Virus record (IMG/VR): IMGVR_UViG_2713896899_000004
Source of the DNA: a virus
Lineage: Duplodnaviria > Heunggongvirae > Uroviricota > Caudoviricetes
DNA length: 38,860 bases
Strand: one strand, 5' to 3'
In this document: piece after piece, positions 14,711-38,860 of the stretch
Numbering within the stretch: position 1 is the first letter of the stretch
How the letters are laid out: each line of letters starts with the position of its first letter
Made by a program: the position numbers and the translations under genes
The notes under the pieces: generated by a model
The model's input: only the letters and a program-made list of their open reading frames with translations
The model's database searches: none
What the model was told of the DNA's origin: nothing

Positions 14711-14712
14711 GA

Positions 14713-16585: not shown

Positions 16586-16588
16586 TTT

Positions 16589-16698: not shown

Positions 16699-16796
16699 AC
16701 TGAAAATGAGTTACTTTTACTCTTGATCCTATAAGAATCTATGCCTAATATACTGTTTACTTATACAGTGAATCGGCGTAACTCGGTGATTGTCAT

Positions 16797-18281: not shown

Positions 18282-18532
18282 TGTTACAACCTTTGCGCGT
18301 TTAATTCTCTATGGTAAGTGCTTACCGATATTACATCAAAGGTTAGGGTTGTAAAGCTATTATCATTTTTTTCGGCAGGCACTTGTAAGACCGAGCAAAG
18401 GTCCATGCATGGAGAAAAACTAGCCCAAAATAGGTAAGAAAATTAACTTGCATCTGATATAGATGTATTCAGTATTGATACAAATTTTAGTAGTATTCCT
18501 TACCATAGTATAAGTTAGAATGGATTGATTGA
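18282..18532. promoter_or_regulatory. Divergent control region between repressor and plus-strand operon, with GGTAAG/CTTACC dyads
   Basis: 251-bp intergenic region containing palindrome ggtaag-tg-cttacc (18314-18327) and further ggtaag / ataagtta half-sites. Confidence 0.45.
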
Positions 18533-18745
18533 ATGAAAACCACTATTTCCAGCCTAATCGCTCTTGAGATCGGACACGTACAGAAATTAGCTGATGAGTG
18601 TGTAGCTGACATCCTCACCGATCTACCGAATGAGCAGATTCAGGTTGGTGTGAATGACACAACTGGCTTTATATTCGAACTTAACAACAAACGCTTCACG
18701 CTTCTCAATACCGGCTCCGGGTCTTTAGCCGTCAGAATCTGTTAA
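18533..18745 (+). CDS. Hypothetical small protein (possible Cro-like partner by position)
   Basis: 70-aa ORF divergent from the HTH regulator; weak RBS. Confidence 0.35.
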   Translation: MKTTISSLIALEIGHVQKLADECVADILTDLPNEQIQVGVNDTTGFIFELNNKRFTLLNTGSGSLAVRIC

Positions 18746-18843
18746 CCCCTCTTCTCCCTGCGCGAATGGCTTAGTTCCCTGTTCGCGCAGTGCTACATTA
18801 AACACACTAGTAAATAATTTGTTTTCATAACAAAGGATTAGCC

Positions 18844-20952: not shown

Positions 20953-20967
20953 ATAAAACAGCCTTAA

Positions 20968-20986
20968 CGATAAGTAACTACTTATG
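20968..20986. promoter_or_regulatory. Dyad gataagta-ac-tacttat upstream of the AAA+ ATPase gene
   Basis: 7-bp arms ataagta / tacttat are exact reverse complements. Confidence 0.45.
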
Positions 20987-21047
20987 ATGGTTAATGATAT
21001 ATTTATATAAGAAGTTGAACGCTCATTAGAGAACAAAGGAAAAACGC

Positions 21048-22283: not shown

Positions 22284-22463
22284 TCGTGCGTAAAGGATGT
22301 TTCGGCTCTCTTATCGCTGCTTCTGAAACTGGTAAGGCTTGTCTGGTGTGCCCAGACAAGCCCGATTGTCACCAATCAGCAAAAGAAGTTGCGATTTCGA
22401 TGCACGGGAAGTTCGTAGGCTTCCCAAATGACAAAATCAAAAAAACCAGAAAGGTAAAAACAC

Positions 22464-25400: not shown

Positions 25401-25982
25401 GACGCAGTTAAAGCCTCACGTCCGTTTGAGATGAACCCCAAACGTTCGGCTGAGATTAACGTGCTCATGACACGGATGGCGGCTGAAATGGGATTAGGTG
25501 ATGAACTAATCCGCCCTAGCATTGGCATTAAGCCGAAAATCATGATCATTCTGGACAATGCAAACGGCAATGATGCTCGAACCGGTTACTTTATGGAGAA
25601 CGGATACGACGATTTTAAGGCCAAGCTGTTGACGGCTGGGGATTTGCGCATGGGCGATCTCTATGTCACAGGCGTTTGCAAAAAGGTGAAAGACAAAGAA
25701 AAGGACTACACCAAAGACGAGATCGGCCAGTTCACCGACTTTATGCGTGAAGAGATCAATCTGGTGCGCCCGACCTATGTGCTGACGTGTGGCAGCCGGG
25801 CAACGGCATTGTTTAACAACAAAAACAAGCCATCCGATTTGGTCGGCAGGAAGGAGTACCTTCCAGACCTTGACGTTACTGTCTTTTACGGGTTTAACCC
25901 CAACATTCTTTACTTCAGACCTGAAGAGGGAGAACGACTAGAAGCGATATTAGCCGACGTAGCAGAAACCATTAAGACGTGA
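22464..25982 (+). CDS. dnaE: DNA polymerase III alpha subunit (family C, DnaE type)
   Basis: 1172 aa; GPGRGSSAGSLVAWCIGITNVDPI ... FERFINPERLDLPDADLDF matches the DnaE palm/catalytic region; PHP-like N-terminus. Confidence 0.8.
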   Translation: MKALMVRTDFSLGESALKAENAVKIAREAGYTAVISADSMNIASVIPLQRAAGDDMAVICGVKLNIVDDPTYEHRAKLAKESKGCMESLERGRNYSFTALIKNEQGYRDICELMTVANTREQFYFVPRLSLEQLVSTYAKGNIILLTSDIGSVFQRNDFAKIISTLITAGGKDNFYSVVYPHPTPFYDQINVRAMKVASALKIEPVAFYPAYYESIDDADIKDIAHMVTNNIKIDQPHRLRIPHQRDNAVNGRRHLLEALKAFSVRMDVPVTAAMASTTQDTIIDACTWRWHELPPALPKMADDEPATLMKLAVAGLRKRLTTKEFGYTPPASENRIYVERLKYEMDTLTRLGFCGYFLMVRDLMNHSRETGIPVGPGRGSSAGSLVAWCIGITNVDPIRHGLLFERFINPERLDLPDADLDFSQARRHEVIEYLNERYGEDYVAGIPNFTYLGAASALRDTARIYGVESADMAVSKELKNVEDDSLPLEELREQLASLDKYATKYPDAFNAACKLQSLMRGFGRHAAGMIVAGVPLTERTPVERRGDARCIAFDKRYCEAMGLIKLDVLGLATLDLLDSAKRYIKENTGEDINLDAISLEDRKVLDGFAAGYTQGVFQLESGPMRKLLKDLGGGIEPMSFKTVVATTALFRPGPIQSGMLDDYVSVAKGFMTPESLHPVLDELTAETNGVILYQEQTMNATRLLAGFTMAEADGVRKAIGKKDMEKMKSMGEKFIVQAQAGWIDVELEDGTTQRIHRAEHFKCEDGTLKTVEEALEYGAKLPINAVRVTASHPGLSEMKAKEIWTAFEKNGAYQFNKSHSVAYSLISYQSMWLKTHYPAEFFAAALTILGEDKHQGLVKDALTYGIRVLPPDVNVSSNRIEIRTLEDGSQVLYAPFSAVKGCSENGCQAIMRAREKVGGKFESLAQFEEAVEKRACNSRVCESLQKVGAFASIEPGSLPATDPERLRDQAELMGNLVIDAVKASRPFEMNPKRSAEINVLMTRMAAEMGLGDELIRPSIGIKPKIMIILDNANGNDARTGYFMENGYDDFKAKLLTAGDLRMGDLYVTGVCKKVKDKEKDYTKDEIGQFTDFMREEINLVRPTYVLTCGSRATALFNNKNKPSDLVGRKEYLPDLDVTVFYGFNPNILYFRPEEGERLEAILADVAETIKT

Positions 25983-25988
25983 TCCCAT

Positions 25989-26014
25989 AAACATGGCCTC
26001 TATGGCCATGTTTT
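25989..26014 (+). terminator. Rho-independent terminator after dnaE
   Basis: Perfect 10-bp stem aaacatggcc / ggccatgttt with loop tctat, followed by TTTT. Confidence 0.6.
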
Positions 26015-26107
26015 CCCTTATCCCCTCATATCCCCTATCCTCGAACTCCTTGCCTTATCATCACAATGATATAATCAATATAAAATGATAAGTAAAAAGG
26101 AAAGCAC

Positions 26108-26539
26108 ATGATCACCGATATTTACGAGAAAATAATGTCTGATCTCGAGTTTGACCGAGACAATCTGGAGGAAGTCTGGCGTAGACAACCCCGCCTTTTA
26201 ATGGAGTATGGCTCAAAACTCGCTCATGCAGAAAGAAGTGTCGCAGAGGCAAAACTTAACCTTGAAGCTGTTGAAGCAAAGCTATACGACACAGAGCGTA
26301 AGAACTTGAGTATGAACGGCATTAAGTTCAACGAGTCTGTACTGGACGCTAAGGTTAAAACAAACCCACAGTATCTGTCTAAACGGCAGAAGTTGGATGA
26401 AGCACGGCACATCGCAGACATATACAAACATGCTGTCGCCGCCTTTTCGCATCGCCGAGACATGATCGTTCAGGCGTCGAAGATGGCCATCGTTGAGTTA
26501 GATCGATTAGGCTCTGAACGCTTTATTACTCCCCGTTGA
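26108..26539 (+). CDS. Hypothetical coiled-coil protein (possible UvsY-like recombination mediator)
   Basis: 143 aa; loose pattern resemblance to T4 UvsY and position beside SSB and recombinase genes; weak. Confidence 0.35.
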   Translation: MITDIYEKIMSDLEFDRDNLEEVWRRQPRLLMEYGSKLAHAERSVAEAKLNLEAVEAKLYDTERKNLSMNGIKFNESVLDAKVKTNPQYLSKRQKLDEARHIADIYKHAVAAFSHRRDMIVQASKMAIVELDRLGSERFITPR

Positions 26540-26544
26540 TTTTT

Positions 26545-26575
26545 GATAGATAATAAGTAAGTACTGATCTATCAT
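26545..26575. promoter_or_regulatory. Dyad tgatagat-aataagtaagtactg-atctatca upstream of the SSB gene
   Basis: 8-bp outer arms are exact reverse complements; inner ataagtaagtact core. Confidence 0.45.
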
Positions 26576-26656
26576 TTAACAGCTCGAAAGAGCCACGAAT
26601 GAACGAAAGCCCAACGCGCATAGCGCCATCGGCCAAATCACAACAAGGAGAAACAC

Positions 26657-27679
26657 ATGTCTAAGACATTACTTGATTTGCTTAACAAAACTCGTGAAGA
26701 CATTGCCGCCAAACGTGGCAAAAACACTGATTTGACCCGCTTAAAAGACGGCATCAACTATATCCGCATCTTCCCTAATAAAGACGACCCGAATGGTAAG
26801 TTCTTCCAGACTTTTGGTATGCACTACATTAAGTATCAGAACGAGGAAGGTAAAGAAGCAACCAATGCTTATATTTGTGAGCAACATACTCACGGTCGCG
26901 CTTGTCAGCTATGCGAAATGGTGATGGAAGGTCGCGCTCGTCACAAGGGTAACAAAGCAATGGAAGAGCGCATCGGTCAAATGCGTGCAACCCCTCGCTA
27001 CCTGGTAAACGGCATTCTTTCAACTCGTGAGGATTTCTCCGATGCAGAGAAATGTCAGTTAATCGAACTGCCTTCCACTGTGTTCGATGATATCTGCAAA
27101 GCAATCACCGAAGACATCGCTGACGATATCGGCAATCCATTAAGCAAAGAGGAAGGTTACGCATTTCAAATTAAGCGCACAGGCTCTGGTCGCGATACAG
27201 AATATGACGTTTCACCAAAACGTAAAGTCTTCAAAGGTGATATCGAAGATAAATTCTGGAACAACCAACATGACCTGATTGCTTATGTGAATCAGGCCGA
27301 TGAAACTCGCCTTCTTGCGACAGTTCGCACTATGGGTCGTCTGATTGGCATCGCTGCACCAACTGCCACTGCATCGGCACCAGCAATTTCCTCAACAGCG
27401 AAAACATCGGCCTCTGCACTGCCTGGATTTGGCTCGATCACTGGTCATACGGAAGGAGCGACGGCTGTAGCAACCGCCCACACTCCAGCTTCTGAACCAA
27501 CCAGTCTGGTTGATGAAGAAGTCCTGCGAGCAATGGAATCTGAATTTAAATCAGAAACAAGTTCTGCTGCCGCATCAGCCAAAGAGTCTGAAGCAGACGC
27601 AACGACATCTGTAGCAGCCGCATCTGCGGCGGAAGATGAAGGTATTGATGACCTGCTGAAAGAACTGGAGTCTCTGTAA
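26657..27679 (+). CDS. Putative ssDNA-binding protein (gp32-like) with Ala/Ser/Thr-rich linker and acidic C-terminal tail
   Basis: Cys/His cluster (CEQHTHGRACQLC), flexible low-complexity linker and acidic tail EDEGIDDLLKELESL typical of SSB C-termini. Confidence 0.45.
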   Translation: MSKTLLDLLNKTREDIAAKRGKNTDLTRLKDGINYIRIFPNKDDPNGKFFQTFGMHYIKYQNEEGKEATNAYICEQHTHGRACQLCEMVMEGRARHKGNKAMEERIGQMRATPRYLVNGILSTREDFSDAEKCQLIELPSTVFDDICKAITEDIADDIGNPLSKEEGYAFQIKRTGSGRDTEYDVSPKRKVFKGDIEDKFWNNQHDLIAYVNQADETRLLATVRTMGRLIGIAAPTATASAPAISSTAKTSASALPGFGSITGHTEGATAVATAHTPASEPTSLVDEEVLRAMESEFKSETSSAAASAKESEADATTSVAAASAAEDEGIDDLLKELESL

Positions 27680-27688
27680 TCCCATTAC

Positions 27689-28684
27689 GTGACCAGTAAG
27701 GCGTCTACGGACGCCTTACTTTTTGGAAGGAATGTACCGGTGAATTATCTCTTCGTAGATGGCAATAGCCTGGGTTATTACCACCAACAATCTGACAAAT
27801 TGCACAACGGCGAAATGGAAGTACAGGCTGCTTTCGGCTTTGTTAAGAACGTCCGTCGTTATGCCTCCATCCTCCATGCCCGACCTATGATTCTTTGGGA
27901 TGGATTTAGTGACAAGCGTCGCGACTTTTACCCGGACTACAAAGCAAATCGCGACGACGATCCTGATATGAAAAAGATGAAGGAAGGCTTTGCTGTCCAG
28001 AAGCCATACATCCTCAAAATGATGACCGCGCTTGGTGTTAACCAAATCATTGCAAAAGATGCAGAAGCGGATGATCTGGCCGGGCTGCTGGTATCCCGCA
28101 TGGCACCGCAGCCAACCGTTGAACACATCTATCTGTTAACAGGCGATAGCGACTGGCTTCAGTTAGTTCGCGAAAACGTAAGCTGGGTAAGCCTGCGTGA
28201 AGACGCCAAAAACAAGCAGGTTAATTTTGAGCAATTTGCGGAGCTGACAGGATTCGCCACGCCTCGCGCATTTTTGGAAGCAAAAGCATTACAAGGCGAT
28301 AACTCGGACAACATTAGCGGTGTTGGTGGCATTGGTGCTGGCGGCGCGAAAGAGCTGCTGCATGAATGGGGAAGTGTCGCAACGATGGTACGCGGCATCA
28401 ACGACGGCTCAATCGTGGTTAATAAAGGGCGTCATAAGACCGCCTTCAACAAACTAGCGAAGAATGCCTTCAACGAGAAAACAGGCTGTCGAATGCTCGA
28501 AGCGTTCAAGAGAAACATCACGCTAATGAACCTGATTGAGACGAAGTTTCCGCCTACCGAAATCGAAACAATCAAAGGCAATCGTGACGTGAAAGCATTC
28601 GAGCAACTGTGCTATGAGCTGAATTTCCGTTCGTTCCTTGAAGACCTTGAAGTGTTTGTTCTTCCATTCGAAAGGTATTGCTAA
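27689..28684 (+). CDS. 5'-3' exonuclease / flap endonuclease (FEN family)
   Basis: LFVDGNSLGYY near the N-terminus, GDSDWLQL and a helix-hairpin-helix segment LQGDNSDNISGVGGIGAGGAKELL; start may be GTG 27740. Confidence 0.7.
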   Translation: MTSKASTDALLFGRNVPVNYLFVDGNSLGYYHQQSDKLHNGEMEVQAAFGFVKNVRRYASILHARPMILWDGFSDKRRDFYPDYKANRDDDPDMKKMKEGFAVQKPYILKMMTALGVNQIIAKDAEADDLAGLLVSRMAPQPTVEHIYLLTGDSDWLQLVRENVSWVSLREDAKNKQVNFEQFAELTGFATPRAFLEAKALQGDNSDNISGVGGIGAGGAKELLHEWGSVATMVRGINDGSIVVNKGRHKTAFNKLAKNAFNEKTGCRMLEAFKRNITLMNLIETKFPPTEIETIKGNRDVKAFEQLCYELNFRSFLEDLEVFVLPFERYC

Positions 28685-28950
28685 TGCTTAAATCGATTAT
28701 TAATGGCGCTACCACCACCCCTACCCAACTGGCAAAAGAGATTGTCTTTTATCACGGTGAGTACGCTGTCATCGCACTGCCGTCAATTCTAGGCGCTGCC
28801 GGAATGAGAGCGACAGATCGCGAGTTTGGATTAGTCAGCGAGCAGGTCGTAAAAATCCTCGCTCGTGTATCCAAACACCTTAACCACGATGCGATTGTAT
28901 TCGACGAATCCGCCGCTTTAAAACGAATCAACAAAACAAAAGGAGCCTGA
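28678..28950 (+). CDS. Hypothetical protein
   Basis: 90-aa ORF filling the gap between exonuclease and recombinase genes. Confidence 0.4.
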   Translation: MLMLKSIINGATTTPTQLAKEIVFYHGEYAVIALPSILGAAGMRATDREFGLVSEQVVKILARVSKHLNHDAIVFDESAALKRINKTKGA

Positions 28951-28952
28951 TC

Positions 28953-30026
28953 ATGGCAAAAGGAAAATCCGCACTGGCACTTGCTCTGAAAAAGAAAATC
29001 GGTAGCAACGACGAAATTCAGAAAGTAACCCATTGGATTGACACAGGCTTTCCTCCGTTAAACAAAGCTATTTCAGGTCGTTACGATGGCGGTTTCCCAT
29101 GTGGTCGTATCGTAGAAGTATTCGGGCCGCCAAGCGCGGGGAAAACCTTTTTGGCAACAGCAGCAATGATCTCCGCTCAGAAACAAGATGGTCTGGCGGT
29201 ATTCCTCGATCATGAGAACAGTTTTGACGTTGGCCTGGCGGTAGCCAATGGCCTGAATGCAGATGAGGATGACGGCCAGTGGGTATACAAGCAGCCTGAT
29301 ACCTTCGAAGACTCTGTAGAGTTGATCGGCACAATACTTAAATTGGTACGTGATGAAGAGCTTATCCCTGAATCAGCACCTATCTGTATCGTGGCTGACT
29401 CACTTGCGTCTATGGTTCCGAACTCCAAAGCCGAGAAGTTCGAAAAGATGGCTGAAGGCACTGCCAAAGACAAAGATCAGCTAAACATGAACGACAATAC
29501 GGCGCTTGCTCGTGCGACGAGCGCGAACTTCCCCACTCTGTCTTTGTGGGCACGCAAATATAACGCCTGCATCATCTTCTTGAATCAGGTTCGCACAAAA
29601 ATCGGTGTAATGTTTGGCGACCCTACGACGTCACCAGGCGGCGATTCACCGAAGTTTTACGCTTCTGTGCGCATCCGTCTCGGTGCATCGGTGATGAAGG
29701 ATGGTAAAGAGAAGATCGGTCAGGACGTAGGCGCAGAGTGCATCAAAAACAAAGTTGCACCACCGTATGGCAAATGCACCTGGAAATTCTACTTCGATCC
29801 TACTCGTGGCCTCGACGTTATCGAATCGCTCGTCGAGTACATGCTGGATGAAGGATACCTGCCAAAGAACGCCAGCGGGCGCGTAGAAATTGGTGACAAG
29901 AAATACACCAAATCACAGATCGTCGAGATGTATCGGGAGAAGCCACTAGCTGAAATCATTGCGGCTTTACAGGCAATCGACGACCGGAGATCAAAAGACA
30001 ATCCCACCGAGTCAGTAGAAGAGTAA
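28953..30026 (+). CDS. RecA/UvsX-family recombinase
   Basis: Walker A GPPSAGKTFLA; FLNQVRTKIGVMFGDPTTSPGGDSPKFYASVRIRLG closely parallels the RecA loop L2 region; RBS aaaggag. Confidence 0.75.
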   Translation: MAKGKSALALALKKKIGSNDEIQKVTHWIDTGFPPLNKAISGRYDGGFPCGRIVEVFGPPSAGKTFLATAAMISAQKQDGLAVFLDHENSFDVGLAVANGLNADEDDGQWVYKQPDTFEDSVELIGTILKLVRDEELIPESAPICIVADSLASMVPNSKAEKFEKMAEGTAKDKDQLNMNDNTALARATSANFPTLSLWARKYNACIIFLNQVRTKIGVMFGDPTTSPGGDSPKFYASVRIRLGASVMKDGKEKIGQDVGAECIKNKVAPPYGKCTWKFYFDPTRGLDVIESLVEYMLDEGYLPKNASGRVEIGDKKYTKSQIVEMYREKPLAEIIAALQAIDDRRSKDNPTESVEE

Positions 30027-30031
30027 ACACA

Positions 30032-30056
30032 AGGCGTCCACAGGACGCCTTTTTTA
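30032..30056 (+). terminator. Rho-independent terminator
   Basis: aggcgtcc-aca-ggacgcct followed by TTTTTT. Confidence 0.7.
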
Positions 30057-30070
30057 TCTCTTGAAAATAT

Positions 30071-30090
30071 ATAAGTACTTACTTATCATT
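30071..30090. promoter_or_regulatory. Dyad ataagta-ct-tacttatcatt, about 30 nt upstream of ORF 30119
   Basis: Shares the 14-mer tacttacttatcat with 13473-13486; TTGAAA lies just upstream. Confidence 0.5.
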
Positions 30091-30118
30091 TTCGCATAAC
30101 AACCACATAGGAAAACAC

Positions 30119-30319
30119 ATGATCAAAATCTATCTATTGGCAGTAGCCACAGGCCTTTCAGTGGCTCTCATCTACGGATTACTGGTTCCGTCGCTGATTT
30201 CTGCAAAGAGTGATTTGGCCGTCATGCTTGGAGTTCTCGTTGGTTTTGGTACTCCTGTAATCGGTCTTATTGCTGGTCGTAAGTTTATTAACTCATTAAT
30301 CAAAGCAAAGGGGAAATAA
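30119..30319 (+). CDS. Small two-helix membrane protein, upstream partner of the SPFH protein
   Basis: 66 aa, two hydrophobic helices; conserved aaaacacATG start context. Confidence 0.5.
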   Translation: MIKIYLLAVATGLSVALIYGLLVPSLISAKSDLAVMLGVLVGFGTPVIGLIAGRKFINSLIKAKGK

Positions 30320-30322
30320 GTA

Positions 30323-31153
30323 ATGAAGAAAGGTTTACTTGCAGTTGCTCTGGCGGCTATTTGCACAATGGGTCTTAGTGGCTGTGATCGCGTAGAGCCT
30401 GGATACGTTGGCATCAAAGTAAACAAATTAGGTGAAGACAAAGGGATTGGTGAAGTGGTTGGCGTTGGTCGCCAATGGACAGGTCTTAACACCGAACTTT
30501 ACGTATTCCCGACCTTCAAACAAATGAAGACCTACGACGAGCCGTTCACATTCCAGATGAGTGACGGTACTGCTATTGGTCACAAAATTGGCGTTGCGTA
30601 TCTGGTTAATCGTGACAAGGTAACGACGGTGTTCCAGACCTATCGCAAAGGCGTAGACGATATCACCGAATCAGATCTGCGTCAGAAAATTGCCGACTCT
30701 CTAAACCGTTTGGCCAGCCGTATGACCACTGACTCATTTATCGACGGTGGTAAGGCACAATTGCTGGACAACGCACTGAAAGATATTCAGAAAGAGATGT
30801 CTCCGGTTGGTATTGAGGTACTGAGCCTGTCATGGGTTGGAAAGCCTGATTACCCAAAAACCGTCATTGAATCTATCAACGCCAAAGTAACGGCTAACCA
30901 GCGTACTCTGCAACGTCAGCAGGAAGTTGAACAACGTAAAGCTGAGGCGAATATGCTACGTGAACAGGCTAATGGTGAAGCTGATGCTATCCGTGCTCGT
31001 GCGCAAGCAGAAGCAGACGCCATTCGTCTGCGCGGTGAAGCTCTGCGTCAAAACCCGAACGTTATGGAGCTGGAAGCCATCAATAAATGGAATGGCCAGT
31101 TACCGCAGTACATGACTCAAGGGGCTAACACTCCTTTCATTACAGTGAAATAA
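30323..31153 (+). CDS. SPFH / band-7 (prohibitin-like) domain lipoprotein
   Basis: Lipoprotein signal MKKGLLAVALAAICTMGLSGC; C-terminal Ala/Glu/Gln/Arg-rich coiled coil typical of SPFH proteins. Confidence 0.6.
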   Translation: MKKGLLAVALAAICTMGLSGCDRVEPGYVGIKVNKLGEDKGIGEVVGVGRQWTGLNTELYVFPTFKQMKTYDEPFTFQMSDGTAIGHKIGVAYLVNRDKVTTVFQTYRKGVDDITESDLRQKIADSLNRLASRMTTDSFIDGGKAQLLDNALKDIQKEMSPVGIEVLSLSWVGKPDYPKTVIESINAKVTANQRTLQRQQEVEQRKAEANMLREQANGEADAIRARAQAEADAIRLRGEALRQNPNVMELEAINKWNGQLPQYMTQGANTPFITVK

Positions 31154-31171
31154 CTCTCTTTGAGAAGATCA

Positions 31172-31195
31172 GGCGTCCAGTTGGACGCCGTTTTA
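31172..31195 (+). terminator. Rho-independent terminator
   Basis: ggcgtcca-gt-tggacgcc followed by TTTT; stem nearly identical to terminator 30032-30056. Confidence 0.65.
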
Positions 31196-31248
31196 TTCTC
31201 GTTATTATCACACACAAGAAAACAATTTGTTAAAAGGTTAAGTTAATT

Positions 31249-32073
31249 ATGCCCAACCACATTACAAACGAAATCCGAGTCATAGGTGGTACAAATAAAC
31301 AACGCTTAGATTTCATACGTGCCATAACTAACAAAAAAGGTCTAATTGACTTTAATACCATTTGCAGACGTCCGAAAAGTATAGAAATGGAAGAAAACAA
31401 TCATATCAGGCGCATGGCCTCTGCAATGGCGGGCGAAACAGTTTACGACTACATGTTCGGTGAATTAAAGACTCCAGAGCAGGTCGAATTAGCTATGCGT
31501 GAATCAGGAATGACACGCAAGGAAATTCGCAAAATCAAAGAGCAGGCTCTTATGCGGCTTGAGAATTATCGTCGCTATGGCTATTACTCGTGGTTTGACT
31601 GGTCGCGAGCTAATTGGGGAACAAAATGGAATGCCTACAACATCGAAATGCCCGTAAAACGTATCCCTACACGTATTAAGTACGGCCATAATTTCCGCCA
31701 TACACACGTTCGAGCATATGCAAAACGAATCTATAAAAAACGTCTTGCAAGACATGCCGCAACTGGTGGTGAGTTGGTGATTCGCTTTGAAACAGCCTGG
31801 TCTATGCCAAAACCAATTTATCAAGCGATGGCTAGAAAGTTCCCGCACCTTGAGTTTGTAATACGTTATGCAGACGAAGACTTCGGCAATAACTGCGGAT
31901 TCATTTTACTTCGCAACGGCAAATGGGAATATGACTACATTGCACCGGCGAATAACGAACAATCGTCAGAAGAAAAAATCAAATGGCGCAAGTTCGCCTT
32001 TGAGTTATGTTGTCCGGGTATTACTCCACAAGAATACGGTCTAAATGAAGAATACGAATACGCCGGATATTAA
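31249..32073 (+). CDS. Hypothetical protein
   Basis: 274-aa ORF, basic, Trp/Tyr-rich; no motif recognised. Confidence 0.5.
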   Translation: MPNHITNEIRVIGGTNKQRLDFIRAITNKKGLIDFNTICRRPKSIEMEENNHIRRMASAMAGETVYDYMFGELKTPEQVELAMRESGMTRKEIRKIKEQALMRLENYRRYGYYSWFDWSRANWGTKWNAYNIEMPVKRIPTRIKYGHNFRHTHVRAYAKRIYKKRLARHAATGGELVIRFETAWSMPKPIYQAMARKFPHLEFVIRYADEDFGNNCGFILLRNGKWEYDYIAPANNEQSSEEKIKWRKFAFELCCPGITPQEYGLNEEYEYAGY

Positions 32074-32106
32074 AGAATTGTCATTTGGCTTTACGCACGA
32101 AGCATA

Positions 32107-32859
32107 GTGGTTAAGAAGATGAAAAGAAAAATTGAAGAACCAAAAACGACACTTAATAAACATGGGGAAAAAATTCAAACACACCCAGCGTTCGGTCTTG
32201 TGAAAACAAGCCGTGTTAACACGACTGGCATTCGCCTATTTGATTCAGAACTGGAACATAGAGACTATATTGAAATAGGCGTTTACGAGGCTGAACTGTC
32301 CTTAGACAATGAACGAACCCGGCCACAAAGGAGTAGCAATAGACGGCCTTTAGTTGAAATTAGACTTAGCCAGGCACAATGGGCTGCTATGGTTAGCAGT
32401 TTTGGCGTGGGCGAAGGTGTGCCATGTACTATTTCATATAAAACCATTGGCGACTCAATTAGAGTTCATGATATTGCCGAGCAAAAAAGTATTCGGCAAA
32501 AATTCAACGATCAAATAAAGGCAGCTACGAATAGTGAGATTGATCGACTTAATCAGCAAGTTTCAGAGCTAGGTGAGCTTGTGAAAAAAGGAAGAGCTGG
32601 AAAACGTGACCTTGAAGAACTATATAGAAAACTTGCATCTGCTGTAGCTAACCTTCCTGAAAATCTGTGCTTTGCTACCGAATTAATGCAGGAGCAAATG
32701 GATGAAATTGTCTCATCTGGAAAGGCGGAGATTGAGGCGTATGTTGCAGGCACTGTTATGCGTAAAGGGTTAGCAGCATTAGGCACAGAATCATGCATTA
32801 ACGATGATCCTACTGTCTCTATCACCAAAATGGAAAGCGGTAAAGAATTACTGCCATAA
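32107..32859 (+). CDS. Hypothetical protein
   Basis: 250-aa ORF; start uncertain (GTG 32107 or ATG 32119). Confidence 0.45.
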   Translation: MVKKMKRKIEEPKTTLNKHGEKIQTHPAFGLVKTSRVNTTGIRLFDSELEHRDYIEIGVYEAELSLDNERTRPQRSSNRRPLVEIRLSQAQWAAMVSSFGVGEGVPCTISYKTIGDSIRVHDIAEQKSIRQKFNDQIKAATNSEIDRLNQQVSELGELVKKGRAGKRDLEELYRKLASAVANLPENLCFATELMQEQMDEIVSSGKAEIEAYVAGTVMRKGLAALGTESCINDDPTVSITKMESGKELLP

Positions 32860-32879
32860 ATGTATCTGAGGTACTGACA

Positions 32880-33269
32880 ATGCTTTTAATTCAACCTGGG
32901 TTCGGTTTAAAGATAAAAAAAGGACATATGTTCGGTTTCAAAGAATCGAAACGAAAAATTCTGTCCATTAGATTGCCGTTTATCACCATTCATTGGTTAA
33001 ACAGAGAGTCAACCGATTATTGGTATAAATGTGCTCTGGCCGCATTTAACGACCCTGACTGGTTTATAGAAAACCACCATGCTGTTCGTCAGGCAAAGAG
33101 AAAAGCTAATACGACATACATGAAGGCGTATCGGAAGGCATGGAAAGAACACCGCGATCGATACCAAAAAGACATGGAGAAACTTGAATTGGAAAATATG
33201 GATCTAAGAAGGAAGCTCGGTGAAGCACGGCGAGATATTGAAGCATATAAACGTCTTGTATCGGAGTGA
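32880..33269 (+). CDS. Hypothetical protein with basic coiled-coil C-terminus
   Basis: RBS gagg upstream of ATG; 129 aa. Confidence 0.45.
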   Translation: MLLIQPGFGLKIKKGHMFGFKESKRKILSIRLPFITIHWLNRESTDYWYKCALAAFNDPDWFIENHHAVRQAKRKANTTYMKAYRKAWKEHRDRYQKDMEKLELENMDLRRKLGEARRDIEAYKRLVSE

Positions 33270-33332
33270 ATATATCTTTGCTTTATTTTTTTCAAAGGTG
33301 ATTATTTTCCTATTTATAAGGAGAAGTAAAAC

Positions 33333-33758
33333 ATGGCAGCAATTAAGAAACTCTACGATGCCGCAAACGCGGCTCTGGATGTTATTGATGATGAAGTATC
33401 AAAAGGCTTTCCTGAACCTGATTGGGCGCATCAGCTACGAAACGCTATCGCCGAAATGAATCCACCAAATCCGACAACCGACGAGACAGACTGGCAGCGA
33501 TTTATCCGTATGTACGCTCAGGAAATAGGTCCAACGCCAACGGCAGAGCAAGCAATGCTGCTGAAATACTTCAAAGAGGCGGGAGAGGATTTACCAATTG
33601 ATGACTCAGCATATTGGTTCCACTGCGCATGGCGTAAGTATGACGTGATATTCACACAAGGCATGGGGAGCAAAGATATGGTTGTGTGGCATCTACTCCA
33701 TATAGACACAGCCGTTGACAGAGTTATTGAACAGTTTTTCCCTAAACAAGAAGATTGA
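33333..33758 (+). CDS. Hypothetical protein
   Basis: RBS aaggag upstream of ATG; 141 aa. Confidence 0.5.
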   Translation: MAAIKKLYDAANAALDVIDDEVSKGFPEPDWAHQLRNAIAEMNPPNPTTDETDWQRFIRMYAQEIGPTPTAEQAMLLKYFKEAGEDLPIDDSAYWFHCAWRKYDVIFTQGMGSKDMVVWHLLHIDTAVDRVIEQFFPKQED

Positions 33759-33813
33759 TCGCCTATTCATAACTAACAAAATAAGTAAACACTAACCACA
33801 AAAGGAAAAACAC

Positions 33814-34089
33814 ATGAGAGTTTTAGTTCGAATCGTTACCAGCACTGTCTATGACGTGTTTCCGCTTTTTATGGTCAAAGCCGATGGTCTTAACGACGAA
33901 GAAACTGACGCACTGATCCAGCGTATTCTCGTTGAATATACAGGTCATGACGCTGATTCAGTGATGGTTGATGATGATGGTGTTTGTTGGCATAACGGCA
34001 ACTGTTGGTACGTAGAAGAGACTCAACAAATCAGTGATGAAGATGCCGCACATCTTGAGCGTATTTTAAGCATCAGCACTTTTGAGTGA
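33814..34089 (+). CDS. Hypothetical acidic protein
   Basis: Conserved aaaggaaaaacacATG start context; 91 aa. Confidence 0.5.
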   Translation: MRVLVRIVTSTVYDVFPLFMVKADGLNDEETDALIQRILVEYTGHDADSVMVDDDGVCWHNGNCWYVEETQQISDEDAAHLERILSISTFE

Positions 34090-34128
34090 GTTTACAGTAA
34101 AATTTATATAAGTTAGTATCTACCTATC

Positions 34129-34308
34129 ATGAAGATTTTTATTGAATACTTGTTACTCATCGTGTCAATAGCTTTTGTCATCGACTGCATTTTCACTGGT
34201 GTCATTCGTAAAGTCTTTTCCCCGGTGAACGACGTAGTCATAAACGCTTTGGCTATCGTGCTCGTATTTAATTCAGCATTTGATGTAATCAAAGAGGTGG
34301 CAGCATGA
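34129..34308 (+). CDS. Small membrane protein (59 aa), not in the ORF track
   Basis: ATG at 34129, hydrophobic helix (LLLIVSIAFVIDCIF), ATGA overlap with the next gene. Confidence 0.35.
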   Translation: MKIFIEYLLLIVSIAFVIDCIFTGVIRKVFSPVNDVVINALAIVLVFNSAFDVIKEVAA

Positions 34309-34640
34309 AGGCCATCCCATTCGCGCTGTTGTTCCTTTCTTCGATCGTTGTGGCCGACACCACTGTTTATCAGTGTGAAATGTCTGTAGCCGACGTTAAG
34401 AATGGCGCTCTTACCGACGTCATAAAAGCACCATATGGAGCGATGGTCGTAGACAGCGGCGACCAGTTCTATGTTGTGCGTGACGATCGAGTGTTGTCAT
34501 CCCCATATCTCACAAACCGTAATGGCAAATTAACCGGCGTCGGAGAAGACCACTTCGTATACAACAAATACAAGGGCTTCTATGGCGTTCACGCTTCTCA
34601 GCAAAGCTACCTTTTCGATGACTGCAAGGAGGTTGGATAA
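34305..34640 (+). CDS. Secreted / periplasmic protein (cleavable signal peptide)
   Basis: N-terminus MKAIPFALLFLSSIVVA followed by DTT; 111 aa. Confidence 0.5.
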   Translation: MKAIPFALLFLSSIVVADTTVYQCEMSVADVKNGALTDVIKAPYGAMVVDSGDQFYVVRDDRVLSSPYLTNRNGKLTGVGEDHFVYNKYKGFYGVHASQQSYLFDDCKEVG

Positions 34641-34852
34641 TGGCATTAACACTGGCAGGTCTGGAAATCGAGAAAACAAGCGGATACTGGCGTGCTAAGG
34701 GTTTCAAGCAGCCTGGCGTTCTTGAGCGTCTGGAACGTGAAGATGGGTATATCGTCCACCAGCGGCGTGAATGGCGTATGTACGATCCAGAAACAGGAAA
34801 ACTGACTACAAAAGCCGGAACACTTTGGGGTCTGTTGAAGAAAATACACTAA
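34640..34852 (+). CDS. Hypothetical protein
   Basis: 70-aa ORF translationally coupled to the upstream gene. Confidence 0.45.
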   Translation: MALTLAGLEIEKTSGYWRAKGFKQPGVLERLEREDGYIVHQRREWRMYDPETGKLTTKAGTLWGLLKKIH

Positions 34853-34898
34853 ATGCAAACTGACTGCGGCTCGTTCCGCAGTCATATTTCATAGTCGT

Positions 34899-35432
34899 CA
34901 CCGCTGACAGCATACACAATCAACTGCCGCTGATAGCATATCGAGAGTCTATCTCACCGCTCACAGCATACTTTACTCGATTTTTTACCGCTGACAGCAT
35001 ACTTAAGACATTGCATGAATAATGTGTACCGGTATGGGTATAACCAGAACAAAATTACCGCTGGCAGCATACGAAGGTCTGACATATGCCATTAATTACC
35101 GCTGATAGCATATCCAAACAAAAATTCCTCAATAAAACACCGCAGACAGCATACGTTCTATCAGGGAGCAGCAGGCAATAAATGCCTTTCACTACAAGCA
35201 ATCAGCGCAATAGCAATAGAATGTTAGTGAGCGCAAACCTATATGGAATGCACTCTTCGAGGTTAGTAACCACTGGGGAGGTATGACAGAGCATTGAGTG
35301 GTGATAGATGATTTACCGCTCACAGCATACGTTCATCTCACTAGACCGCTGGTAGCATATCTTTAACCGTTCACAGCATACTTTTCAGAAAAATAGCCGC
35401 TGATAGCATACATTTCACCGCTGACAGCATAT
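34899..35432. repeat. Iteron array, about 12 copies of a 17-bp repeat (consensus yACCGCTGACAGCATAC), downstream of rep (copy-control, incA-like)
   Basis: Copies read at 34899, 34924, 34955, 34986, 35056, 35097, 35138, 35314, 35344, 35365, 35395 and 35416, in both orientations with irregular spacing. Confidence 0.8.
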
Positions 35433-36526
35433 CAAAGCAGTTTGAGACTATTGGAAAGGATCTCAATCATCTTGATATTTTCAGGCGTCAAATTCTGCGA
35501 AAGTTCAGTTATCTTGTTGATAATGTTCTGTTTAGCATCAATTTCCCCGGCTTTCTCATCTGGTTTTTTGGGTTCGATGTCTTCAGGTTTTGGCGGTGCG
35601 ACTTTAAGTTTTGGATTGCGGCTATGAATCTGGATATAGATCGACCGCCCTCGCTTAATCTCGCTGTATTCGAGATAGCCCAAATCTTGGAGAGCTTTTA
35701 AGCCGTTACGTATAGTCTGATTCTGCGAGCTTACATTCCTGCTACTCAAATTGAGTCGCGCACGCAATCGAGCAAGCGATACCGGCGCAGGCTTGGTTGG
35801 AAGACTTTCGATGAAGGTGTACAGAGCCTGTGCTGTTTCTTTGCGTGGTAGCTTATTGATAACCTTTAACTGCAAAAGAACCTTATGGTCAAAGCGATAT
35901 AGTTCGGCCAGCTTCGGTTCTGCATAGAACACCACCGTATCTTTCTGCTCGTTGTAGTCCACGCTATTGATGAGGTGCACCATCAGAAGCGAGATCTTGT
36001 TAGAGCCGTCGACGTTCTTTTCTTCATACGTTCTCTGGAAAGACAGAGTTGTACGCATGATCTTCAAAAGACTGTTTGTAAGCCGGTCGCGGAGTGTTTT
36101 GCGGATCTGTGACGATGGATAGCCACAAAACTTCGCAAATTTCGTGATGCTTAACTCGACACGACCGTTAGGTTCGCCGTATTCTGCCAGCGAACGCACA
36201 ACGCCCACCCACGTTTTGAAATCATGATCCATGTCGAGACGAGGACCGGTTATCTTGATATCGGAATAGCCTTCAGAACGGGCTACTTCGAGCTGAACAA
36301 GCTCCTTTGAAGCATCGATCTCATTTGGCTTGTTACGCTTGCTGTATTTTGTCCCCTTGAGCGTGGGCACGAACAACCCCAGCCGCATCAACGCAATTGG
36401 TTGGACTGTATTGTTGCTATTAGGGACAAGTTCCCCTGTGTACAATTCAAGGGAACCTTCTTCAAAGTTGTCGAGATTATCTTCTACTTCTTTGTTATTT
36501 TTACCTTTTTTATTTTTTGTGGACAT
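35432..36526 (-). CDS. Iteron-binding replication initiator (Rep, plasmid RepA-like)
   Basis: Gene sits between two iteron arrays. Start set at internal ATG (36526) with RBS aaagg, because the track's 40-aa N-terminal extension reads through iterons. Basic protein, Arg/Leu-rich C-terminus. Confidence 0.6.
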   Translation of the reverse strand: MSTKNKKGKNNKEVEDNLDNFEEGSLELYTGELVPNSNNTVQPIALMRLGLFVPTLKGTKYSKRNKPNEIDASKELVQLEVARSEGYSDIKITGPRLDMDHDFKTWVGVVRSLAEYGEPNGRVELSITKFAKFCGYPSSQIRKTLRDRLTNSLLKIMRTTLSFQRTYEEKNVDGSNKISLLMVHLINSVDYNEQKDTVVFYAEPKLAELYRFDHKVLLQLKVINKLPRKETAQALYTFIESLPTKPAPVSLARLRARLNLSSRNVSSQNQTIRNGLKALQDLGYLEYSEIKRGRSIYIQIHSRNPKLKVAPPKPEDIEPKKPDEKAGEIDAKQNIINKITELSQNLTPENIKMIEILSNSLKLL

Positions 36527-36545
36527 GTGGACACCTTTGTCATTC

Positions 36546-36648
36546 AACCGCTGACAGCATACTTGATTTGCCGCTGGCAGCATACCAAAAACAGTTGGCA
36601 GCATACGGCGAACCGTTGACAGACTATCAATTACCGCTGGCAGCATAC
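36546..36648. repeat. Iteron array, 4-5 copies of the same 17-bp repeat, upstream of rep (origin iterons)
   Basis: Copies at 36546, 36569, 36592 (degenerate), 36611 (degenerate) and 36632. Confidence 0.75.
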
Positions 36649-36688
36649 ATGAACATGGCTTCAGACCAGTCGTGGCGCGGCTTACAGC

Positions 36689-36770
36689 GATCGGGGATCT
36701 TATTTGATCTATACAAGGATCTATCTATGGATCTCTTTATTAGGATCTATCCTGTGGATATGTGAATAAT
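36689..36770. promoter_or_regulatory. Origin-associated GATC cluster (six GATC in about 60 bp, five GGATCT-type heptamers) plus DnaA-box-like tgtggatat
   Basis: GATC at 36689, 36696, 36706, 36718, 36729 and 36744; tgtggatat (36754-36762) matches the DnaA box complement TGTGGATAA at 8 of 9 positions. Confidence 0.6.
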
Positions 36771-36847
36771 TAAAACAGGCATTTACTACCTTCGGCGCAC
36801 CTGGTGGGTTATCGTTGCCTCGGCTAACAATCACAGAAAAATGACAT

Positions 36848-37492
36848 ATGGATCTAAAACGCACGCGCTGGGTTCGTCGTCTTGAAGACGGCTCCTACAC
36901 TATCGAATCAAATTCCAACCTGAATAAGCAGAAGTTGCTTTGTGACATCTGCGGTATAGCGGCGAAGTGCCCGATCTACGAAACCAGAATTAAACTTGAT
37001 AAGGCTGGTGTGAATTTTCATTTAAACAGTTGCATCAGGTACGTTCCATTGCTCGCATTTCGTAAACCGATCATCGGATTGGATGCCCCCTACTTCAACA
37101 CACTCCGTTCAGGTGTGACGTGGCGAGATCGTTTATCACCAGACAAGCTGATTTGCCTTGTATCCGCAGACACAGGGAAAATCATCCGTTTTGGGAAAGT
37201 AGACAAGGTTTACTCAGGTCCAGTAGACGAAATGTTGCGGAAACACAGCCGGTTTAATCATCTCTGTATGGGTGGTGAGAAAATCGAAAAGGTGGAAGAA
37301 GTGATCCGTAAATCCTACGGACACTTCCTGACCAAAGATAGCCTGCTCACCGCAATCTACATCAGACATGTAAAACGTGAGTTCGACCTCGAATACCACA
37401 GTGAAGAAGAGCTTAACCTTGTTGACCCACGTCCAAAAGCTGGCGTCATAAGCATAAACGCAGCGCGTAAAAAGCCCACTGACGCGCTGTAA
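36848..37492 (+). CDS. Hypothetical protein
   Basis: 214-aa ORF; no motif recognised. Confidence 0.5.
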   Translation: MDLKRTRWVRRLEDGSYTIESNSNLNKQKLLCDICGIAAKCPIYETRIKLDKAGVNFHLNSCIRYVPLLAFRKPIIGLDAPYFNTLRSGVTWRDRLSPDKLICLVSADTGKIIRFGKVDKVYSGPVDEMLRKHSRFNHLCMGGEKIEKVEEVIRKSYGHFLTKDSLLTAIYIRHVKREFDLEYHSEEELNLVDPRPKAGVISINAARKKPTDAL

Positions 37493-37746
37493 CCCTCCAG
37501 ATCGCATATTGGCGTAGATAAAATCTACGCCTCCTCAAAATAGCTCTCATAGCGTTCTACAGTGATCCTGTCTTATTTTTAGTCATACAGACAAGCAAAA
37601 TTGCGCCACAATATATAGGTATATACTTACTTATAAATTTTGTATATTAAGACGCTCGTTTCATTTCTAACATACCGTTATGCATAGTTGTTTACCTTCT
37701 CATTGCTCTTAAAATTTGTATCAAAATAACCACAAAGGAAAAACAC

Positions 37747-38790
37747 ATGACTTTGCCATACGGCGTCATTTCTGACTGCCACTACCACAAATGGGATGCG
37801 TTCTCCACGACGAACGCTGAGGGGCTTAACTCCAGACTTGAAATACAGTTGGAAGCAACGAAAGAAGCAGCCATCGCCATGAAGAAGGCCGGTTGTAAGT
37901 ACATGTTGGTTGCCGGTGATACATTTCACGTCCGAGGAACTGTGTCCCCTTCTGTTTTGCATTACGTAACTGAAACGTACAAGTGGATTATCAACGAGCT
38001 TGATCTGACAGTAGTAATGCTGGCCGGTAATCACGATCTTGAAACCAACGATTCAGTATATAGCGCCAACGCAGCAGCATCGCTGAGTTCTATCGGCGTG
38101 GTAATCGTATGTGGCAAGCGCCCACACTCAATAAAAATTGGTGATGTGACTGTCCACCTGATTAGCTGGCGTAACAATCATGCGGAGCTTATCAGCGATC
38201 TGAAAGCATTACGTAAGAGCGTAGAAGGTGATAATCATGACGTTGTTATCCATACATCCATTAACAAAGCCATTCCAACAATGCCTGACGTCGGTATCGA
38301 TGCGCAGGAGTTAAAGGATATCGGCTTTCGTCTCGTGCTTAGTGGGCATTACCACAACCACAAAGAGGTCATTCCTGGAGTTATCAGTGTCGGTGCGCTG
38401 ACCCATCAAAATTGGGGAGATGTTGGATCTCTGGCTGGTTACATGATCGTAAACCCGGACGGCAGTTTCAGTCACTACGAAACCAGTGCGCCTAAATTCA
38501 TTAACCTGGAAGATTATGTTGCCGATGACCAAATTCGCGGCAACTACGTGCGTTTCCGCGCCGTAATTGAGAACGATGAAGAAGGCATTAAGTACCAGAA
38601 TATCCTCAAAACAATGGGCGCAAAAGGTGTCGTGTGCAACTTCATCCGTAAGTCATCAATGATGGAAGGGACAGCAAGCACAACGGAAACCAGCAAAATC
38701 GATAGCTTGGGAGAGTCGGTATCTGCTTATTGCAAGATTGTCCACGATACTGACGGCGGATTTGATCTGAGCAAGTTGGATATTTTGTAG
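37747..38790 (+). CDS. Calcineurin-like metallophosphoesterase (SbcD/Mre11-like nuclease family)
   Basis: Phosphoesterase motifs in order: DCHYH, AGDTFH, AGNHD, SGHYHNH; conserved aaaggaaaaacacATG start; stop codon lies inside the right TIR. Confidence 0.6.
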   Translation: MTLPYGVISDCHYHKWDAFSTTNAEGLNSRLEIQLEATKEAAIAMKKAGCKYMLVAGDTFHVRGTVSPSVLHYVTETYKWIINELDLTVVMLAGNHDLETNDSVYSANAAASLSSIGVVIVCGKRPHSIKIGDVTVHLISWRNNHAELISDLKALRKSVEGDNHDVVIHTSINKAIPTMPDVGIDAQELKDIGFRLVLSGHYHNHKEVIPGVISVGALTHQNWGDVGSLAGYMIVNPDGSFSHYETSAPKFINLEDYVADDQIRGNYVRFRAVIENDEEGIKYQNILKTMGAKGVVCNFIRKSSMMEGTASTTETSKIDSLGESVSAYCKIVHDTDGGFDLSKLDIL

Positions 38791-38860
38791 ACTGGCCCCC
38801 TGAATCTCCAGACAACCAATATCACTTAAATAAGTGATAGTCTTAATACTAGTTTTTAGA
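38788..38860. repeat. Right terminal inverted repeat (73 bp), partner of 4-76
   Basis: Same comparison; the stop codon of the last CDS (38788-38790) lies inside the repeat. Confidence 0.9.

Follow-up and report, generated by a model that had tools for sequence, protein, structure and literature searches.

Gene 33814-34089 of a viral sequence assigned to the Caudoviricetes (IMG/VR record IMGVR_UViG_2713896899_000004) begins with the 15-nt context AAGGAAAAACACATG, which ends in the start codon. The whole stretch of 38,860 nt is referred to here as the window. Why should nearly the same context stand at the starts of many other genes in it? A sequence-only reading of the window had reported near-identical copies at nine or more gene starts, held that this conservation exceeds that of a generic Shine-Dalgarno sequence, and suggested either a co-regulated set or a recently expanded gene family. 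Here, we find a real initiation consensus that is under selection and specific to one gene class, a solid result that is unsurprising in kind. The window is part of an SSU5-like Escherichia coli phage-plasmid. Over its right half, it shares 97% identity with Escherichia phage PhiR41_1 (PV340561), 95% with phage Cyrano (pLF82), and 79% with Salmonella phage SSU5. Almost all window genes lie on the plus strand, and the content comprises lysis and partition genes, a three-tRNA cluster, and a replication-recombination module.

When up to three mismatches to AAGGAAAAACACATG were allowed, nine copies were found in the window, exactly at the coordinates reported earlier, all on the plus strand and all ending on the ATG of an open reading frame (ORF) (Table 1). 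Dinucleotide shuffles gave 2.0 ± 1.3 copies, and none of the 100 shuffles reached nine. The 9-mer AAACACATG occurred seven times on the plus strand and never on the minus strand, against an expectation from base composition of about 0.19 per strand. Similarly, 7 of the 25 plus-strand AAACAC sequences were followed by ATG (p = 2e-7). The partial versions noticed earlier at 1253 and 2864 do exist, and further ones were found (Table 1). When all 47 gene starts in the window were taken together, there was little information in the spacer (0.05 to 0.25 bits at positions -6 to -1). The conservation is thus a property of a subset of 9 to 11 genes and not of all starts: aligning the upstream regions brings out a conserved spacer in these genes and a nearly uninformative one over the full set.

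Five bases were the same in every full copy, namely, A(-12), A(-6), A(-5), C(-3), and C(-1); four more were each shared by eight of the nine, namely, G(-9), A(-7), A(-2), and A(+4). The Shine-Dalgarno element is (A)AGGA at -12 to -8, reduced to AAGA in the copy at 8752. Mean pairwise identity was 0.79 at -12 to -1, 0.42 at -20 to -13, and 0.24 to 0.30 elsewhere; among the coding sequences at +4 to +60 it was 0.27 to 0.28. The upstream likeness amounts to a weak A/C-rich stretch (AACCACAAAGG...) and is gone by -21 and after +4. A longer string, AACCACAAAGGAAAAACACATG, is common to the copies at 37747, 33814, 30119, and 8752.

The ORFs behind the nine copies range from 66 to 1,172 amino acids, and eight of the nine proteins tested had PHROG or Pfam matches, with differing assignments. 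In an all-versus-all blastp comparison, no match among the nine proteins fell below E = 0.47. Because the carrier proteins are unrelated and the DNA likeness is confined to -20 to -1, the idea of a recently expanded or paralogous gene family was rejected.

As a host control, 118 annotated genes from two 50-kb stretches of E. coli K-12 were used, one stretch containing the S10, spc, alpha, and str operons and tufA. None of the 118 starts was within three mismatches of the motif, and none had CAC at -3 to -1, ribosomal protein operons included. The motif was present at 9 of the 47 window genes and at 15 of the 133 genes of PhiR41_1, for which a complete 108-kb genome is available; compared with the phage early-region genes, its absence from the host set gave p = 1e-6. 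These counts rule out a generic host-type ribosome-binding site and bear out the view that the context exceeds an ordinary Shine-Dalgarno sequence.

The motif is also unevenly distributed within the phage genomes. In PhiR41_1, the 15-mer matched 16 times, always on the plus strand, and 15 of the 16 matches were annotated starts; CAC was the commonest triplet at -3 to -1 (15/133 genes). The PhiR41_1 genes were divided into 85 replication/nucleotide-metabolism (early-region) genes and 48 others, namely, the structural-tail genes, a lambda-like ea block, and a minus-strand block. The motif was found at 15 of the former and at none of the latter (Fisher p = 0.001), and the gene for the beta subunit of ribonucleotide reductase (RNR) was among its carriers. 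Among the early-region genes, it was present at 14 of the 54 that follow a gap of at least 40 nt and at 1 of the 32 that are tightly coupled, and this single coupled case is owed to a doubtful small ORF. Outside these regions, none of the 19 gap-preceded genes carried it. In SSU5, CAC-ATG was present at 12 of 95 nonstructural annotated starts, including those of the helicase, CobS-like, DNA polymerase III (Pol III), SbcD, and RNR small subunit genes, versus 0 of 29 structural/lysis starts. The motif genes are preceded by intergenic gaps of 43 to 255 nt. These results support the motif as a marker of one functional class, comprising the replisome and nucleotide metabolism. The proposed co-regulated set is plausible, with indirect support from the shared class, the position on first cistrons after gaps, and the absence from the structural genes of two relatives; the regulator that it would call for was not found.

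Conservation was followed in the start contexts of orthologues, for which 80 related loci around the Pol III alpha gene (79 to 100% amino acid identity) were collected. For the CobS-like and Pol III alpha genes and the genes starting at 30119 and 33814, GGAAA(A/G)CAC-ATG was kept while the region from -40 to -16 diverged, with conservation of 0.89 to 1.00 at -6 to -1 versus 0.58 to 0.87 upstream. At gene 30119, positions -6 to -1 were invariant across 20 distinct orthologous contexts, and orthologues of gene 33814 with 42 to 52% amino acid identity still kept AA(A/G)CACATG. The distance from the GGA of the Shine-Dalgarno element to CAC shifted by 1 to 2 nt among orthologues while CAC was always flush with ATG, which suggests that the motif acts when translation initiates and not at the DNA level. 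Several lineages tolerate TAC at the single-strand-binding protein gene, and the motif of gene 26108 was found only in close relatives. Gene 18844 lacks the full motif here, and other lineages show ...GGAAAGCACATG or GGAAAAACACATG at this gene. Genes outside the set kept their own, different contexts across relatives. The survival of the motif amid diverged flanks, together with its occurrence at gene 18844 in other lineages, indicates that this very sequence is under selection for its role in initiation. Such a pattern would not arise by inheritance alone.

The motif sites also differ from other starts in their predicted physical properties. The minimum free energy predicted for -40 to +40 was -9.0 kcal/mol at motif sites versus -14.1 kcal/mol at others (p = 7e-5), and the predicted unpaired probability at -15 to +6 was 0.63 versus 0.48 (p = 3e-4). 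At -15 to -1, the motif sites contain 62% A and 4% T, with G almost only in the Shine-Dalgarno element. Pairing of the Shine-Dalgarno element with the anti-Shine-Dalgarno sequence (CACCUCCUUA) was weaker, with a mean duplex energy of -4.9 kcal/mol versus -6.0 to -6.5 kcal/mol for other genes, and GGAG or GAGG was present at 1 of 15 motif sites versus 52 of 118 others (p = 0.005). The weak Shine-Dalgarno pairing, the avoidance of GGAG, and the low structure thus define a distinct type of site: a short Shine-Dalgarno element, an A-run, ACA, and no structure.

The motif is probably, though with ample room for doubt, a lineage-specific, structure-free extended initiation site placed on the stand-alone first cistrons of SSU5-like replication and nucleotide-metabolism genes. 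The sequence and its register, the class restriction, the conservation, the low predicted structure, and the weak Shine-Dalgarno element are the observations on which this explanation builds. In this model, the leader of about 20 nt is nearly all A and C, with an (A)AGGA or GGA core at about -11 to -9, three to five A residues, (A/G)CAC flush with AUG, and usually A(+4). Such an unfoldable leader would keep the site always accessible. The 30S subunit would then dock by weak Shine-Dalgarno pairing of 3 to 5 bp at near-optimal spacing. The combination of GGA, A-run, and ACA within 10 to 12 nt would fit the single-stranded elements reported for ribosomal protein S1. As a result, initiation would be efficient whatever the neighboring sequence, and its rate would be similar across the replisome components. 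The involvement of S1, the high efficiency, and the coordinated output are what we infer.

Several published results are in line with this model. A-rich spacers gave the highest translation in E. coli libraries (PMC7264876), and GGA, A-rich tracts, and ACA are reported to be recognized by S1 within a footprint of 10 to 12 nt (PMC1702504). The 11-nt string GGA-AAAA-ACA-C within the motif has the sequence features of such A-rich, S1-type enhancers (PMC1702504). Like them, the motif has an A-run between the Shine-Dalgarno element and AUG, lacks structure, and combines GGA with ACA (PMC7264876, PMC1702504). S1-type enhancers are degenerate, however, whereas the motif has invariant C(-3) and C(-1) and is limited to one gene class of one phage lineage. 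Other points weigh against the extended initiation site as well. Spacer cytidines were unfavorable in an E. coli library (PMC7264876), and the two invariant ones are unexplained by general efficiency; even an alphabet of only A and C allows eight triplets, of which CAC is just one. Neither highly expressed host genes nor the phage's own abundant structural genes have the motif, which would be strange for a site that was simply optimal for initiation. In addition, transcription starts were predicted from consensus matches only, and the model rests on sequence.

T4 offers a close known counterpart. The start site of T4 gene 1 (deoxynucleoside monophosphate kinase), tttGAGGAGAAACACATGaaa, contains the same GGAGAAACAC-ATG (GGAGAAACACATG) as window positions 26645-26659 and is identical to it from GGAG to ATG. 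It is two positions off the motif consensus, and the gene that it serves, like motif carriers here, functions in the nucleotide metabolism of a phage of E. coli. The use of GAGGAGAAACACATG by T4 gene 1 indicates that this context is in use in E. coli by another phage. For T4, the comparison covers the one example of gene 1, whereas the motif is recurrent here, with 9 copies in the window and 15 in the 108-kb relative. Most copies have GGAA, whereas T4 gene 1 has GGAG.

A similar comparison can be made with the targets of the T4 endonuclease RegB and S1 in early mRNAs (GGAGRAYARAA), which are likewise 11-nt single-stranded sequences at the initiation sites of one temporal class, with GGA followed by an A-rich part, and which document that a coliphage can have initiation-site sequences specific to a gene class (PMC1702504). 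A RegB/S1 site consists of GGAG, rarely GGAU, and an A-rich heptamer without C, the canonical form being GGAGAAUAAAA (PMC1702504). The T4 consensus thus has G at position 4 and no C, whereas in the motif position 4 is A and positions 8 and 10 are both C. The gene 1 RNA, with C at positions 8 and 10, was experimentally resistant to RegB/S1 cleavage (PMC1702504). Most window copies, with GGAA and C at these same positions, are of the poor-substrate type (PMC1702504), so that the motif would be by analogy the resistant version of a RegB site, if anything.

Two further systems were considered. Processing by MazF (ACA) to leaderless mRNAs was dropped because ACA is undepleted in the motif genes (observed/expected, 1.04 versus 0.92) and cleavage there would also destroy the coding regions. 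CsrA-type leaders have at least two GGA sequences, typically in hairpin loops and one of them overlapping the Shine-Dalgarno element, with the consensus RUACARGGAUGU. By eye, at -25 to -1, seven of the nine leaders had one GGA and those of 8752 and 22464 had none. The leaders are also predicted to be unstructured, and in most copies ACA lies 2 to 3 nt rather than 1 nt from GGA. The motif is therefore not a CsrA-type leader, and it stands outside the RegA and RegB systems, whose defining proteins were not found. By analogy, it would work like a Shine-Dalgarno element joined to an A-rich (S1-type) enhancer, in parallel to the class-specific signatures of T4 early genes.

Among the other explanations, it is possible but on balance doubtful that the motif is a translational operator, at which a phage or host RNA-binding protein would read the unstructured GGAAAAACAC-AUG (RNA, GGAAAAACACAUG) and jointly repress or activate the replisome mRNAs, in the manner of T4 RegA or of T4 gp32 on its own leader. 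The T4 RegA regulon is alike in layout only, with a short sequence class at the start codons of many replication-gene mRNAs; its targets are AU-rich (genes 44, 45, and rpbA contexts) and lack CAC, whereas the window motif is A/C-rich. The functional class of the carriers is that of the RegA regulon, the strict AUG register fits a site overlapping the start codon, and an operator would leave room for the invariant C(-3) and C(-1). The obvious candidate is the gp32-like protein encoded at 26657, the gene of which has the motif itself; membership in the gp32 family follows from matches to PF08804 (E = 6.3e-65) and phrog_1192 (E = 7e-111). In the leader of this gene, a conserved interrupted hairpin at 26609-26633 (-48 to -24; GCC-caac-GCGC-ata-GCGC-catc-GGC) is followed by 24 unstructured nt that include the motif, loosely like the T4 gene 32 operator. 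That operator is specific to gene 32, AU-rich, and built on a pseudoknot, whereas here the unstructured element is common to many genes and the hairpin is simple, with minimal covariation: in the RNAalifold consensus, one of its seven pairs was compensatory (CG to UA), in a single lineage. Moreover, binding of the gp32 type is not sequence specific, which leaves CAC unexplained. For T4 RegA, tblastn against the window, PhiR41_1, and SSU5 gave no match at E ≤ 1, and the best phmmer hit in six-frame ORFs of the window and PhiR41_1 had E = 1.1. For RegB, neither the same tblastn searches nor phmmer on the same ORFs gave a match at E ≤ 1. An antisense small RNA (sRNA), which the sequence-only reading had envisaged next to a protein as the binding partner, was rejected because AGGAAAAACAC had no minus-strand match with up to one mismatch in the whole 108-kb PhiR41_1 genome; an Rfam scan of the window returned tRNAs only. 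A concerted, lineage-wide change of the consensus, which a coevolving protein-site pair might show, was not seen in the 80 related loci, a result that is uninformative rather than negative. The fuller version of this idea, in which the element would be the operator of a replisome-wide posttranscriptional regulon (helicase, primase, Pol III alpha, single-strand-binding protein, SbcD, and RNR) under one RNA-binding factor, is slightly more doubtful still. This factor would most plausibly be the gp32-like protein when free of single-stranded DNA or an unrecognized RegA-like repressor.

It is improbable that the copies are inherited or exchanged pieces of an ancestral cassette or linkers at module junctions, with no function tied to the exact sequence. 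The sharing of AACCACAAAGGAAAAACACATG by several copies, the restriction of the gene 26108 motif to close relatives, and mosaic junctions at ribosome-binding sites, such as that of the 31249-33269 insertion, which keeps the upstream palindrome and the Shine-Dalgarno element, would suit this explanation. However, pairwise similarity is at background beyond -20 and after +4, the motif survives fully diverged intergenic flanks and reappears at gene 18844 in other lineages, and in two genomes sharing 79% identity it is confined to a single functional class. Nuclease evasion is far less probable. According to this idea, the avoidance of GGAG and the C at positions 8 and 10 after GGA would allow escape from a RegB-type, GGA/GGAG-specific, S1-stimulated endonuclease, either from a competitor phage or as an unknown phage or host enzyme. 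The depletion of GGAG and GAGG fits, as do the poor cutting of T4 GGAA sites and the near resistance of the gene 1 RNA (GGAGAAACAC) owing to its two cytidines (PMC1702504); on the other side, no RegB homologue was found in the window, PhiR41_1, or SSU5, a resident phage-plasmid has no evident gain under T4 superinfection, and the analogy is a single one. A promoter element or transcription factor site beside the start codons is very unlikely. Other repeated DNA elements (AAACAAnTTGTTT and ATAAGTA...TACTTAT) do occur in the same gaps and sigma-70-like promoter matches are depleted, but the motif is always flush with ATG and on the coding strand, contains a Shine-Dalgarno element, is not palindromic, and lies downstream of the promoter-like sites. 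Finally, chance or an ordinary Shine-Dalgarno sequence with A-rich composition can hardly be the explanation. The whole-window logo has little spacer information and the exact 14-mer is present in many unrelated viral contigs; among the IMG/VR matches listed, these were single copies at about chance level for the size of the database and hence uninformative. The shuffle, host, and late-gene counts (0/100, 0/118, and absence, with p values of 1e-6 to 2e-7) refute it.

The motif provides a simple sequence marker for the replication/early gene class of a widespread group of enterobacterial phage-plasmids (SSU5, pHCM2, and Cyrano-like), which carry resistance and toxin genes. It appears undescribed for these elements, since "Shine-Dalgarno" did not occur in any of the papers listed that mention SSU5 or phage-plasmids, and no account of their regulatory sequences was found in the literature searched; the LF82/Cyrano paper gives the genes expressed above background in lysogeny, without a motif analysis. 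The motif can also aid start codon annotation, as it backs the primase start at 8752 and draws attention to a copy before the SSU5 primase gene that is missing from the annotation. As a compact, naturally reused initiation site, it could be of use as a part in expression constructs. Were the conserved cytidines read by a specific factor, the motif would reveal that replisome genes form a translational regulon in a phage beyond the T4 family. Such a regulon would amount to T4-style translational feedback in an unrelated temperate phage-plasmid and could hold down the lytic replication genes during lysogeny in the plasmid state. The motif is a lead for posttranscriptional control of replisome genes.

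Table 1. Full and partial copies of the start context in the window
Copy	Positions	Strand	Gene
Motif copy AAAGGAAAGCACATG	7318-7332	+	Start of DnaB-like helicase gene 7330-8670
Motif copy AAAGAAAAACACATG	8740-8754	+	Start of DNA primase gene 8752-9933; Shine-Dalgarno degenerate (AAGA)
Motif copy AAGGAAAAACGCATG	21036-21050	+	Start of CobS-like AAA_5 ATPase gene 21048-22283
Motif copy AGGTAAAAACACATG	22452-22466	+	Start of DNA polymerase III alpha gene 22464-25982
Motif copy AAAGGAAAGCACATG	26096-26110	+	Gene 26108-26539, phrog_2058, no function assigned
Motif copy AAGGAGAAACACATG	26645-26659	+	Start of T4 gp32-like single-strand DNA-binding protein gene 26657-27679
Motif copy ATAGGAAAACACATG	30107-30121	+	Start of 66-aa membrane protein gene 30119-30319
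Exact motif AAGGAAAAACACATG	33802-33816	+	Gene 33814-34089, phrog_2209, no function assigned; site under study
Exact motif	37735-37749	+	Start of SbcD-like nuclease gene 37747-38790
Partial copy atGGAGGAAAACATG (ggaggaaaacATG)	1241-1255	+	Gene start 1253
Partial copy tAAGGtggaCACATG (aaggtggacacATG)	2852-2866	+	Gene 2864-3247
Partial copy ccAGGtgagcCACATG	6534-6548	+	Gene 6546-7286 (phrog_2500)
Partial copy			Gene start 18844
Partial copy			Gene start 33333
Partial copy gacAAAGGtgtcCACATG (gacaaaggtgtccacATG)	36524-36541	-	Replication protein (repA) gene, start 36526; start agrees with PhiR41_1 annotation

For the primase gene, the longest ORF begins with GTG at 8680, yet the primase annotated in PhiR41_1 has the length expected from 8752. 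In SSU5 (NC_018843), a copy of AAAGAAAAACACATG at position 35837 precedes the annotated primase start (35905) by 68 nt and is out of frame with it. The primase starts at the homologous motif ATG in the window and PhiR41_1, unlike in the SSU5 annotation; either the SSU5 start is misannotated or there is a frameshift or sequencing difference.

The copy at 22452-22466 is located inside the 3' end of a small ORF, 22286-22489, which encodes 67 amino acids including Cys, has a GTG start, and runs 26 nt into the start of the Pol III alpha gene. This ORF is annotated in SSU5 (SSU5_051) and not in PhiR41_1. Within it, at about 22338-22360, there is a perfect 9-bp inverted repeat, CTTGTCTGG-tgtgc-CCAGACAAG. 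The sole AAACACATG away from a called gene start, at 11278-11286, is near the end of ORF 10842-11324, inside its 3' part. There it begins a reading frame of 19 codons, which overlaps the start of the gene at 11321 (440 amino acids) and may be a mini-ORF with an upstream or coupling role or a chance occurrence. Upstream of the interrupted hairpin in the leader of the gp32-like gene, a further hairpin of the GNRA type, GCTC-GAAA-GAGC, was noticed at about 26582-26593.

Promoters were considered as an explanation for the repeated context and rejected. Sigma-70-like matches were rarer than in shuffled sequences (15 versus 38.3 ± 6.9 at 1-20000 and 20 versus 27.6 ± 5.2 at 20000-38860), and only two convincing ones were found in motif gaps, at 26547-26575 (before 26657) and 30061-30089 (before 30119). 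The latter, TTGAAA-17-TATCAT, is preceded by a terminator-like hairpin (30031-30051) and has the palindrome TAAGTACTTACTTA (30072-30085) in its spacer. The leader predicted after it is about 23 nt long and is essentially the extended motif.

This palindrome belongs to a family, TAAGTA-N(2-6)-TACTTA, with the other members at 9949-9966, 13465-13482, and 20971-20984. The half-site ATAAGTA was present in 18 copies versus 4.3 expected (4-fold), for example, at 6400, 6514, 26088, 26553, 33781, and 37628; read against the gene calls, the copies are mostly intergenic. One half-site is within the spacer of the promoter-like site at 26547-26575. To judge from the sequence, a palindrome or half-site in a promoter spacer would be in the classic position of a repressor operator.

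A second palindrome, AAACAA-N-TTGTTT (AAACAAnTTGTTT), was found 20 to 45 nt upstream of gene starts, including those of parA, the helicase, and RNR beta; the helicase copy, AAACAATTTGTTT, is 20 nt upstream of the gene. In the window, it is located at 4113-4125, 7298-7310, 18812-18824, and 31220-31232, and in PhiR41_1 at 5682, 15899, 16628, 30177, 30228, 32939, 33845, 34609, 45701, 73104, 76038, and 102328. All 12 PhiR41_1 copies are intergenic, although only 11% of that genome is noncoding. The palindrome is too AU-rich and its loop too short for an RNA hairpin, and it looks like a putative DNA-level operator or phage-specific promoter element. Together, these DNA-level elements suggest that the motif genes may head separately controlled transcription units.

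At positions 31249-33269, the window has three genes without a counterpart in PhiR41_1. The left junction of this insertion lies between the AAACAATTTGTT palindrome and Shine-Dalgarno element on one side and the start codon on the other, and it is an illustration of mosaic exchange at ribosome-binding sites.

Gene 34129-34308 (59 amino acids) lacks a Shine-Dalgarno element. In the region 34091-34131, a conserved promoter-like site, TTTACA-17-TAGTAT, ends 9 nt before its ATG. The region from -40 to -1 is highly conserved where the proteins of the relatives are only 47 to 71% identical. The gene is a candidate for a leaderless or near-leaderless mRNA.

The tRNA cluster at 14247-14710 comprises Asn-GTT, Thr-TGT, and Ser-TGA. 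The third gene was a marginal tRNA-Sec in Rfam (47.1 versus a gathering score of 47) and Ser in ARAGORN. The RecA-like recombinase gene at 28953-30026 encodes 357 amino acids in the window versus 779 amino acids in PhiR41_1 (record positions 98798-101137; L001 28960-31299), and this greater length suggests that the PhiR41_1 gene contains an insertion, such as an intein.

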